The notes beneath the pieces are model-generated. The model made no database searches. It saw only the letters and a program-made list of their open reading frames with translations, and was not told the DNA's origin. A program made the translations under genes and the position numbers. 18,831 nucleotides of DNA from an uncultured archaeon (lineage in GTDB: Archaea > Asgardarchaeota > Lokiarchaeia > Sigyniarchaeales > SOKP01), in NCBI GenBank assembly GCA_964632315.1, contig CAZWEM010000063.1:1-18831 (forward strand), given 5' to 3'. Shown one piece after another: positions 5,698 through 11,102 of this stretch (positions are counted from its first letter, which is position 1; each line of letters opens with the position of its first letter).

Positions 5698-6960
5698 ATG
5701 CATATGGTCGAAGAAATAAACCCATTCGAAGTAGTTAAGACTCAAATCGATATTGTAGCAAAGGAGATAGGATTGGATCCCAATGTGGTGGAATACCTTA
5801 AAAGAATCGAAAGAGCTTTGATAGTGACCATTCCAATCTTGATGGATGATGGGTCACTTCAAATTTTTGAGGGTTATCGAGTTCATCATTCTACCGTGAG
5901 GGGTCCTGGGAAAGGAGGAGTAAGATTTTCACCTCACGTGTACCTTGATGAAGTAAAAGCACTTGCAACTTGGATGACGTGGAAAACCAGTCTTTTAAAT
6001 CTTCCACTTGGTGGAGCTAAAGGAGGTGTCTGCGTAGATCCCAGGAAATTATCGAAAAAGGAATTAGAACGCTTGACTAGACGCTATACTGCAGAAATTA
6101 TTAATCTTATTGGACCAGACATTGACATCCCTGCTCCTGACGTAAATACAAATGCTCAAATAATGGCGTGGATGATGGATGTGTATTCAATGCAAAAGGG
6201 AAGAACTGTTCCCGGAGTCGTGACGGGCAAGCCAATTGAAATTGGAGGGAGTGTAGGTAGAGAATCAGCCACTGGAATGGGATTATATTTCGTACTTGAA
6301 GCTCTATGCGAAAAATTGGGACTCAAACTTGAAAATCAATCAATTATAGTTCAAGGATTTGGAAATGTTGGTGGAAATATAGCTGAATTACTATATAATA
6401 GAGGATGCAAAGTTTTAGCTGTTTCTGATATATCAACGGGAATTTATTGCCAAAATGGGGTTGATGTAGAAAAGTTATTAGAATGGGTAAAACAAGGCAA
6501 ACTTTTAAAAGATTATGAAGAAAAAAATTACAAAAATATTACAAATGAAGAATTGTTGACACTCGAATGTGATATTTTAGTTCCCGCTGCTATTGAAAAC
6601 CAAATTACCGAAAAAAATGCAAATGCTATCAAATCTAAAATTGTATTAGAAGGGGCTAATGGTCCAACAACTCCAGAAGCAGACGCAATTTTATTTAAAA
6701 AAGGCATCCATGTTGTTCCGGATATCTTAGCTAACAGTGGGGGTGTATGTGTCAGCTATTTTGAGTACATACAAGATATTCACTCGTATTTCTGGAAGTT
6801 AGACAGAATTAATGAAGAATTAAAGAGAATCCTCTTGGAAGCATTTGAAGAGACATATAAAATCTCTCAAGAGCGCAATATATCTCTACGAACAGCGGCG
6901 TATATTATTGCTGTGACTAGAATTGCTAAAGCAATCGAATTACGAGGGATTTTTCCATAA
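5698..6960 (+). CDS. gdh: second glutamate dehydrogenase (Glu/Leu/Phe/Val family)
   Basis: KGGVRF, MTWK, GGAKGG, DIPAPDV, TGKP, GFGNVG, EGANGP, NSGGVCVSYFE. Start may be ATG 5698 or 5704. Confidence 0.93.
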   Translation: MHMVEEINPFEVVKTQIDIVAKEIGLDPNVVEYLKRIERALIVTIPILMDDGSLQIFEGYRVHHSTVRGPGKGGVRFSPHVYLDEVKALATWMTWKTSLLNLPLGGAKGGVCVDPRKLSKKELERLTRRYTAEIINLIGPDIDIPAPDVNTNAQIMAWMMDVYSMQKGRTVPGVVTGKPIEIGGSVGRESATGMGLYFVLEALCEKLGLKLENQSIIVQGFGNVGGNIAELLYNRGCKVLAVSDISTGIYCQNGVDVEKLLEWVKQGKLLKDYEEKNYKNITNEELLTLECDILVPAAIENQITEKNANAIKSKIVLEGANGPTTPEADAILFKKGIHVVPDILANSGGVCVSYFEYIQDIHSYFWKLDRINEELKRILLEAFEETYKISQERNISLRTAAYIIAVTRIAKAIELRGIFP

Positions 6961-10001: not shown

Positions 10002-10202
10002 TTAAGTAGCTCTAAATAATCTGCTCTTTTCTAATTTTAATTCTCTCTTACAATGAGGACAAATCCACGTGGTTTCATTTTTTTTAACAGAATTAATACA
10101 ACTACTACATATCGTAATATCACATATGCAATAATAACTAGTTTCAATTGATTTTCCTAAATCTTTTTCACATATATAACAGTTAGGTGGATTCTTAGAC
10201 AT
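10002..10202 (-). CDS. stand-alone C4C4 RING-finger protein (Not4/CNOT4-type spacing)
   Basis: C-x2-C-x13-C-x-C-x4-C-x2-C-x12-C-x2-C; final CPHCK matches the RING CPxC[RK] signature. Confidence 0.75.
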   Translation of the reverse strand: MSKNPPNCYICEKDLGKSIETSYYCICDITICSSCINSVKKNETTWICPHCKRELKLEKSRLFRAT

Positions 10203-10470: not shown

Positions 10471-10734
10471 TTATTTTCGTCTTTTTAGGAAATCTGGAAT
10501 TACACCATCTATTCCCAACGACTTCATGATTGTATCTTTAATATCCATTTGAATTTTTAAGTTCATTGTTTCTTCAACCATCTTTGAGAGACTAGCAGTG
10601 AGCGATTGAATACTTTCAGAGGTTGTTCCTAAGGACTCCCGAAGTATTTTATTAGTTTCATGAATCTCTTCTGTCATTTTTTCCATGCTTTGTCTCATTG
10701 CTAATAGTTCTTCTCGTAAATCTTTCAATCCCAT
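10471..10734 (-). CDS. small coiled-coil protein
   Basis: 87 aa with heptad-like helical composition; ends in GVIPDFLKRRK; its stop abuts the stop of the convergent gene. Confidence 0.7.
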   Translation of the reverse strand: MGLKDLREELLAMRQSMEKMTEEIHETNKILRESLGTTSESIQSLTASLSKMVEETMNLKIQMDIKDTIMKSLGIDGVIPDFLKRRK

Positions 10735-10891
10735 AGTTTAAACCATAATTTTTATAATTAAGTGAGTGACATTATCTTATTAGAATTTTAAATTTAATTC
10801 ATTTAACAAGATAAGTTATCTAATATAAAAATAAGTCTTAAATTCTTAAATACTCTTTAAAATACTAATATAAGTACATTATGTGAAAAAA

Positions 10892-11044
10892 ATGTCTGAA
10901 TGGAAAAAAAGGATTGAGGCTCATCAAAATGATGAGTGGTGTTCCACTACTGGTTGAGGGATCGCTGACGGTATAGTTTCACTAATTCAATCTATTTTGA
11001 ACAAAAACAAGCAAAAAAAATCAAATAAAAAATCTCAAAGTTAA
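10892..11044 (+). CDS. unannotated small ORF with an in-frame TGA (candidate selenoprotein, 50 aa; 21 aa if TGA terminates)
   Basis: ATG 10892 is preceded by GTGA (SD-like) and AT-rich TATA-like sequence. Translation is MSEWKKRIEAHQNDEWCSTTG[TGA 10955-57]GIADGIVSLIQSILNKNKQKKSNKKSQS, then TAA 11042-44. A hairpin follows immediately. Confidence 0.5.
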
Positions 11045-11102
11045 TCCAAAAATGGTAGGGGTTAATTTTTAAAGTTCTGCCCGAACTGGAGATAATTGTG
11101 CT

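Follow-up and report, generated by a model that had tools for sequence, protein, structure and literature searches.

The stretch from 10892 to 11044 on the forward strand of the DNA analysed here very probably encodes a small selenoprotein of an undescribed family, a genuine gene that is unannotated and that appears to use a variant SECIS element. The window is the whole of an 18.8-kb contig (C63; 18,831 nucleotides) in a 4.45-Mb assembly, with 33% G+C, of an uncultured lokiarchaeon. Comparison of sequences with those of relatives establishes the gene, its conserved UGA, coding-type selection on both sides of that UGA, a structured RNA, and the association of the RNA with the TGA. That selenocysteine (Sec), and not another residue, is inserted at the UGA of codon 22 goes a step further, and we hold it to be highly likely. 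The original prediction of a hidden micro-selenoprotein is supported by the conserved TGA, by coding selection downstream of it and by the Sec machinery of the genome. In the mechanism we propose, 10892-11044 would be independently transcribed, the ribosome would read the UGA of codon 22 as Sec with the archaeal/eukaryote-type Sec machinery that the genome carries, and a three-way junction of about 62 nt, at the 3' end of the gene, would direct the recoding.

The gene and its in-frame TGA

The coding sequence, its TAA stop included, occupies 10892-11044 on the plus strand, which also carries the upstream element, the Cys codon, the TGA and the structured RNA described below, and is defined by translation, by the orthologues, by pN/pS and by the openness of the frame. 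Read-through translation runs from the ATG at 10892 to the TAA at 11042-11044, and with the TGA at 10955-10957 (codon 22) read through, it gives a peptide of 50 residues identical to the one first proposed, laid out as MSEWK..C-x4-U..helix..Lys-rich tail. The Cys partner of the presumptive Sec in the CxxU/Cx4U motif is Cys17, encoded at 10940-10942. Because only 21 codons precede the TGA, an ORF listing made with translation table 11 misses the gene, so that the claim of an unannotated ORF is confirmed both by the read-through translation and by absence from the standard listing.

How widely is this arrangement shared? Searched in six frames, 33 of the 36 other genomes of the genus yielded a match to the read-through peptide, at 38-60% identity and with one TGA each. 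A profile built from 32 sequences (A2) extended what we call family A to 103 of 134 further genomes in the GTDB family, in 13 genera, counts that overstate independence since the compared genomes are kin. Every credible match in the GTDB family has exactly one in-frame TGA, in the same column, and the conservation of the TGA, on which the prediction hinged, thus holds without variation in more than 100 genomes. The same profile gave no credible family A match in about 265 genomes from other Asgard families.

The genus alignment comprises 34 extracted genes, the window's included, and both the TGA and the Cys17 column are constant in 34/34, with Cys encoded by TGT in 33 and TGC in one; the Cys is also invariant in profile A2. 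The MSEWK start, one Cys, the TGA and an Asp four residues past it are invariant or nearly so. The usual motif is Cys-[Thr/Ser]-[Gly/Ser]-Sec (CxxU), present in 30 of the 34 sequences, and a two-residue insertion makes it Cys-x4-Sec in the window and three others (4/34). The proposed Cys-x4-Sec motif is therefore right for the window but not for the family, for which CxxU is the rule.

Family A also occurs in a database of 5.8 billion proteins, which holds 23 members, all with W at the Sec column; in the two of these 23 entries that were checked, the TGA had been translated with table 4. Homologues with Cys at the TGA were looked to as further support; for family A neither the 400 genomes nor the 5.8-billion-protein database yielded one, and Sec/Cys pairs occur only in a tandem sister family, described below.

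It might be thought that the TGA is a pseudogene's nonsense mutation confined to one assembly, or an artefact of assembly or contamination, the more so as the window comes from a metagenome-assembled genome (G000) with 8.6% estimated contamination. We regard this as having a negligible chance of being correct, given that the TGA is invariant across so many genomes and that the 23 metagenome database entries carry the family. The TGA at 10955-10957 is covered by contigs of four marsh/salt-marsh metagenome runs from four studies, none with any other letter, the check being of DNA contigs only and one of the four runs (X1) perhaps being the window's own source sample. Because the contigs of four runs show the same letters, an error of assembly does not account for the TGA; and a foreign contig is unlikely, because the synteny of the gene is kept across the genus. 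In 31 of 33 loci family A is flanked by a divergent gene for an 87-aa protein and by a convergent UDP-glucose dehydrogenase gene.

A conserved element upstream of the gene, at 10816-10849 (43-76 nt before the ATG), was recognised in the alignment of genus orthologues. It consists of a TATA-like box at about 10816-10830 followed by a GTCTT..TAAG box at 10835-10849, each of which keeps its distance from the ATG in most of the 34 sequences of the genus alignment, and it may serve as a promoter. The ATG of the original prediction stands; its TATA-like region does not, the conserved box lying at about 10816-10830 and not in the AT-rich run before the ATG, and the GTGA it had pointed to is unconserved. 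Two genus orthologues have ATA in place of ATG, and in both an in-frame GTG lies three codons upstream.

Is the UGA simply a stop? If so, the gene would encode a peptide of 21 residues (MSEWK...Cys-x-x), and conservation downstream would belong to an RNA element, such as a 3' UTR structure or a terminator. UGA does end about 21% of the long ORFs of this genome, the N-terminal 21 codons are well conserved on their own, and there is indeed a structured RNA downstream. The DNA past the UGA nevertheless behaves as coding sequence. Across the 34-sequence genus set pN/pS is 0.39 upstream of the TGA and 0.47-0.49 downstream, and codon third positions vary most. The invariant downstream Asp is GAT in 24 sequences and GAC in 10, and the conserved downstream Gly is coded by GGA, GGT and GGC. 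Differences in length among the orthologues all preserve the frame. Frame 0 remains open past the TGA for 23-33 codons, conserved at the amino-acid level, in 34/34, and it is the sole open frame: stops interrupt the other two, about 2.5 of them on average, and close them in 32-33 of the 34. The orthologues end with TAA (32) or TAG (2) and never with TGA, as against the share of about 21% among the genome's long ORFs. The structured RNA, for its part, does not begin until the last few codons. The downstream coding conservation offered as a check is thus present as synonymous variation. A true stop at codon 22 seems to us highly improbable, and a further observation against it comes from the sister family.

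A structured RNA at the 3' end of the gene

The 3' ends of 34 genes share an element of about 65 nt whose RNAalifold consensus is a three-way junction. In the window this SECIS-like junction spans 11032-11093, lying over the last codons and the stop; its start precedes the end of the stop codon by 11 nt, its end falls 49 nt past the stop, and in the genus orthologues the element lies at the stop or at most about 40 nt after it. The MFE fold of the window's 11032-11093 has the identical structure, at -15.2 kcal/mol. Helix I (11032-11036/11089-11093; consensus AUCUC/GAGAU) closes the junction. Helix II (11037-11047/11059-11069; 9-10 bp in the consensus) carries an 11-nt apical loop, AAAAAUGGUAG, at 11048-11058 (consensus AAAAAUnnUAG). 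Hairpin III, of 5 bp (11073-11077/11083-11087, loop 11078-11082), is followed directly, in the consensus, by the 3' strand of helix I.

Support for this fold comes from covariation as well as from energy. Pairing is kept in 96% of the cells of the alignment, compensatory changes occur at 13 of 19 pairs, none of 500 shuffles matches it, and slid registers collapse. A covariance model, R1, gives 73 bits on the window's element. Its scores are 72-88 bits for the element of orthologues within the genus and 50-79 bits for that of other genera and metagenomes, where it was recovered in 22 of the 22 loci tried. Among 23 elements outside model building, in an alignment that the model itself fitted, pairing is kept in 97% of cells, and 13 of 19 pairs again have compensatory changes. 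An earlier fold for 11045-11090, a companion hairpin pairing 11045-48 with 11087-90 and 11054-60 with 11075-81, did not hold up: in the 34-sequence alignment only 58% of its cells pair, much as in shuffles (314/500), and being unconserved it gives way to the three-way junction.

How specific is the element? Over the whole window no Rfam family reached its gathering score, and between 10850 and 11150 its SECIS families gave no match even with E values up to 10 allowed. Of about 8,255 first-look candidates in the window's own genome, the 150 that were followed up contained no significant further copy of R1, leaving only the window's. A loose hairpin scan of the genome, for a 9-bp helix with an A-rich loop ending in UAG, gave 23 matches against 12-19 in shuffled genomes, and because of this the apical loop alone is unspecific; the matches that stood out were only elements flanked by AUGA..GA and the element of the window.

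The weak matches of Rfam bear on another reading, in which the locus is a non-coding RNA gene such as a C/D-box sRNA, with the TGA flanked by two boxes, AUGAUGA (10928-10934) and CUGA (10965-10968). The sRNA families sR55 and GlsR10 do match over 10926-10991, at E of about 0.6-0.7, with 14-17 bits where the gathering scores are 35-75, that is, at the level of chance. The supposed boxes are window-specific codons (Asn-Asp-Glu and Ala-Asp) that are missing in the orthologues, and substitutions follow the pattern of codons. We have set this candidate aside as exceedingly improbable.

If the RNA is a SECIS, what kind of SECIS is it? The lokiSECIS is also named the Asgard eSECIS-like type I element, and to our knowledge every lokiSECIS, Asgard eSECIS-like or eukaryotic SECIS element described so far has the same AUGA..GA core. 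A lokiSECIS consists of AUGA, a 9-bp stem, an 11-nt loop with five A first and AG last, and then GA (Mariotti 2016, PMC4989117). A pattern scan located canonical lokiSECIS elements in this genome 4-17 nt past the stops of recognisable selenoprotein genes, two VhuD-like genes among them. At the PrxL gene the canonical element lies at the gene end, and its AUGA itself supplies the terminating TGA. The loops of these canonical elements, for example AAAAAUGUUAG, are essentially that of the new element, and three of them fold in the order helix I, junction, helix II, 3' hairpin, helix I.

The new RNA thus resembles lokiSECIS in lying close to the stop, in its 9-bp upper helix, in the 11-nt loop that begins with a run of A and ends in AG, and in its closing lower helix; with the canonical elements of this genome it also shares the 3' side hairpin and the three-way junction. 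It differs in that none of 57 elements has an [A/G]UGA..GA core (AUGA..GA or AUGA..AA) at the junction, and a motif scan that requires the core misses it. The 5' junction strand is 2-3 nt long, against about 8 nt in canonical lokiSECIS. The pairs at the foot of helix II covary as Watson-Crick pairs, and therefore no hidden kink-turn is seen. In euryarchaeal SECIS elements a GC-rich helix of 10 bp is separated from a GC helix of 3 bp by an asymmetric GAA/A bulge; on inspection the consensus has AU-rich helices and no GAA/A bulge. We suggest that the junction RNA would be a family-specific derivative of lokiSECIS that has kept the closing helix, the 9-bp helix, the 11-nt loop (A-run ... UAG) and the 3' hairpin, and has lost the AUGA..GA (kink-turn) core. 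Because that core is absent, we infer the competence of the RNA as a SECIS from its architecture and from its co-occurrence with the TGA. The expectation of a 3'-UTR SECIS is in this sense realised, by a conserved candidate SECIS-like RNA at the 3' end of the gene that tracks the TGA.

A tandem sister family and the selenocysteine machinery

In many relatives, 65 of the 134 genomes of the GTDB family, family A is followed by a second mini-gene, family B, which provides a natural control; family B was not found in the window's own genome. Its product has an acidic N-terminus, the motif C-Y-x-T-S-U, then S-L-I-x-M-W-Y and a basic tail. An hhalign comparison of A with B gave a probability of 25% and an E value of 7.5e-4 over 14 columns, which is suggestive of homology between the two.

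The RNA follows the TGA of family B with some precision. In 13 of 13 loci of the genus with a TGA-containing B there are two R1 matches, one behind each gene, and in eleven loci of the genus without B there is a single match. One locus, in genus g1, has a B-like gene bearing Cys, and it too has a single R1 match and no second element. In genus g28, two genomes with TGA in B have the RNA element right behind the stop, and three others have Cys at the Sec column of B. These three leave 50-70 nt between the stop of B and a convergent gene, and behind their Cys-bearing B, R1 run without filters reaches no more than 10.9 bits, where real elements score 50-88 bits. The Cys form of family B occurs in 4-5 genomes, and the cases of Cys without the RNA represent perhaps two evolutionary events. 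Presence of the RNA with TGA and its absence with Cys is the strongest argument that the RNA is a SECIS and that the UGA specifies Sec. It also speaks against a real stop, since the RNA vanishes where the sister gene has Cys for UGA.

A different arrangement is seen in genera g27 and g19, where A and B, with one UGA each, lie side by side and have a single element in common, behind the second gene. This is reminiscent of the hdrA-vhuD pairs, which have one SECIS for both genes (Mariotti 2016; Huang 2024). Unlike those pairs, the loci of the window's genus have one element per gene, and the window has gene A alone.

If Sec is to be inserted, the genome must of course be able to make and deliver it, and the machinery that the prediction proposed to look for is present. 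The tRNA-Sec scores 61 bits, ARAGORN finding the same tRNA, and SepSecS (471 bits) adjoins it. An EFSec-like GTPase gene lies on the same contig 3 kb away (237 bits, just under the NCBIfam cut-off), and a PSTK-like gene scores 158 bits, also under the NCBIfam cut-off; despite scores below the cut-offs, these two are the best full-length or N-terminal matches. There are two selD genes, each with an in-frame TGA. SepSecS is found in 130 of the 135 genomes of the GTDB family, and because it is so general its co-occurrence with family A is uninformative.

Might the UGA be read through as a standard residue, by a near-cognate Trp, Cys or Arg tRNA or a suppressor tRNA, with the RNA stimulating read-through apart from the Sec pathway? 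The missing AUGA..GA core would be in keeping with this. Against it, the lineage has a complete Sec pathway, and the RNA shares its loop, its helix length and its three-way architecture with the genome's own VhuD and PrxL SECIS elements. A Cys-x-x-U context is typical of selenoproteins, and it is in such a context that the UGA of family A lies. Family B alternates UGA specifically with Cys, and if a standard residue were inserted one would expect its codon to appear somewhere among the more than 100 genomes. We consider read-through as a standard residue improbable, and keep to insertion of Sec as the preferred reading.

The predicted protein and its place among selenoproteins

The read-through peptide matches nothing in Pfam or NCBIfam, in agreement with the statement that it belongs to no recognised family. 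AlphaFold2, run on the family alignment, predicts a helix at residues 3-12, a loop at 13-20 and a long helix at 21-49, with a mean pLDDT of 72 and values of 81-90 over residues 21-40. In this model Sec would be the N-cap residue of the long helix, a placement shared with CxxC/CxxU redox motifs. This helix has a hydrophobic stripe at i, i+1, i+4 and i+5, the invariant Asp and a G-x-x-x-G-like spacing, followed by the Lys/Arg tail; its hydrophobic moment is 0.27-0.37 and its mean hydrophobicity 0.02-0.30. Because the stretch after Sec contains only about 13 largely hydrophobic residues, the invariant Asp among them, the helix is best regarded as amphipathic and not membrane-spanning, and the description of the protein as membrane-associated thus finds no support as far as spanning is concerned. 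Association with a membrane through the amphipathic helix is possible.

The product would then consist of an N-terminal MSEWK helix, an acidic loop ending in Cys, a Sec-capped amphipathic helix (U-G-I-x-D-G-I-I...) and a Lys/Arg tail. The Cys/Sec pair could form a redox-active selenenylsulfide or a site for a soft metal, and the whole might act as a stand-alone thiol/selenol oxidoreductase or as a metal- or metalloid-binding mini-protein, the basic tail tethering it to an anionic surface. Whether redox or metal chemistry is the role of family A we judge to be evenly balanced.

VhuU, found in Lokiarchaeia, is a Sec-containing piece of the [NiFeSe] hydrogenase of about 50 residues that carries the C-terminal hydrogenase motif UxxC(xxH), and we know of no other archaeal selenoprotein of similarly small size. 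Family A is like VhuU in having about 50 residues and one Sec and in occurring in Lokiarchaeia; it is unlike VhuU in its CxxU/Cx4U motif, followed by the amphipathic helix and basic tail, and its peptide gave no match to a hydrogenase family in NCBIfam or Pfam at E values up to 1. With the Rdx/SelW-like thioredoxin-fold selenoproteins it shares Cys-x-x-Sec and the placing of Sec at the N-terminus of a helix. It departs from them in having two predicted helices and no strands (AlphaFold2), with no beta-alpha-beta fold, and in a Cys-Sec spacing of 2-4 residues. Haft and Zhang described small bacterial selenoproteins, namely the UXX-star families and the CC/Se motif family NF041239 (PMC13188914). 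Like these, the proteins of family A are short, are overlooked by gene callers and are recognised through comparative genomics only. There is no sequence similarity to them, and those are bacterial proteins with an in-ORF bSECIS, unlike family A, which is archaeal and has its element in the 3' UTR.

For the Asgard archaea seven selenoprotein families are listed (Mariotti 2016, PMC4989117; Huang 2024, PMC11227280; 2026 review, PMC13188914). All seven were found through homology to known families, and their SECIS elements are all of the AUGA..GA type (PMC4989117, PMC11227280, PMC13188914). The published survey methods needed either Cys homologues or a SECIS of that type (PMC4989117, PMC11227280). 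Family A resembles none of the seven; it is new, lineage-restricted and of about 50 residues. It escapes homology searches, SECIS-pattern searches and gene callers, and therefore archaeal selenoproteomes are probably undercounted.

Our wider proposal is that a SECIS lacking the kink-turn works, and that a Sec-only family, with a sister that toggles between Sec and Cys as the RNA is gained and lost, originated, possibly de novo, inside a single Asgard family; this we would call an even bet. The 50-mer can be synthesised chemically with Sec, so that its redox or metal chemistry is measurable without a cultured host. Eukaryotic SBP2 needs the AUGA..GA quartet, and as far as we know the archaeal/Asgard machinery is without SBP2. 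If the proposal is true, the Asgard SECIS reader would recognise the A-rich loop, the 9-bp helix and the geometry of the junction, not the AUGA..GA quartet. A signal that has no core makes it testable what the SBP2-less machinery of archaea recognises in a SECIS and also which parts of the eukaryotic SECIS functioned before there were eukaryotes.

Genes and signals around the window's very probable selenoprotein gene

The selenoprotein mini-gene of the window (family A) has two neighbours on the opposite strand, each kept in 31 of the 33 loci of the genus. The nearer, divergent from the selenoprotein gene, encodes an 87-residue protein (10471-10734, minus strand) that matches no family in Pfam, looks helical when judged by eye and, at 42-57% identity, is conserved to about the same degree as the selenoprotein. 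The other neighbour lies two genes upstream of the mini-gene and encodes a 66-residue RING/U-box-like zinc-finger protein (10002-10202, minus strand), whose match to zf-RING_4 (E 6.6e-6) falls slightly under the gathering score.

Two boxes, AUGAUGA and CUGA, flank the Sec codon itself, and the segment containing them (10926-10991, plus strand) gives weak matches, of 14-17 bits, to C/D-box sRNAs. Because the boxes are not conserved among orthologues, we judge these matches to be due to chance.

A tandem partner family

At related loci, none of them in the window, family A is followed in tandem by a second family of mini-selenoproteins (family B). Its members, as at L013:1858-2034, L016:1843-1980 and L060:1451-1585 (all plus strand), run from an acidic N-terminus through C-Y-x-T-S-U and S-L-I-x-M-W-Y to a basic tail, and the family is found in 65 of the 134 genomes of the GTDB family. 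The three-way-junction element, a SECIS-like RNA lacking the AUGA..GA core, accompanies family B either as its own copy or as one that is shared. Cys replaces Sec in family B of four to five genomes, and at all four of the Cys-form loci examined the three-way-junction RNA is absent.

Canonical lokiSECIS and the Sec genes of the source genome

Three canonical AUGA..GA lokiSECIS of the source genome, on contigs C8 (~107390, minus), C52 (~12478, plus) and C14 (~57672, minus), also form three-way junctions when each sequence is folded singly: a small hairpin follows the GA directly on its 3' side, and a helix closes the junction. We found no description of this feature in the consulted passages of the SECIS papers.

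Two further candidate genes precede canonical lokiSECIS. A 62-codon ORF (contig C3:40577-40762, minus strand; L097:278-463, also minus) ends 11 nt before one, has a predicted transmembrane stretch and G-G-G-G-U-G-C close to its C-terminus, and has TGA-containing homologues in five other genomes of the genus (35-38% identity); it is probably another small selenoprotein, not on published lists. A 157-residue ORF (C14, ~57.7 kb, minus strand; L098:201-674, also minus), without a match in Pfam, ends 17 nt before another and carries two adjacent TGA codons (..H-A-D-U-U-A-D..).

Three Sec genes are clustered inside 6 kb (contig C35:1160-6640): SepSecS (1160-2461, minus), tRNA-Sec (2542-2630, minus) and an EFSec-like GTPase (5750-6640, plus).

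Database entries with W at the Sec position

All 23 public database entries of family A (P0002-P0024) have W at the Sec position. The two that were looked up come from short, AT-rich metagenome contigs in which TGA was translated by genetic code 4. Hunting such 'W' artefacts could offer a cheap route to hidden selenoproteins.
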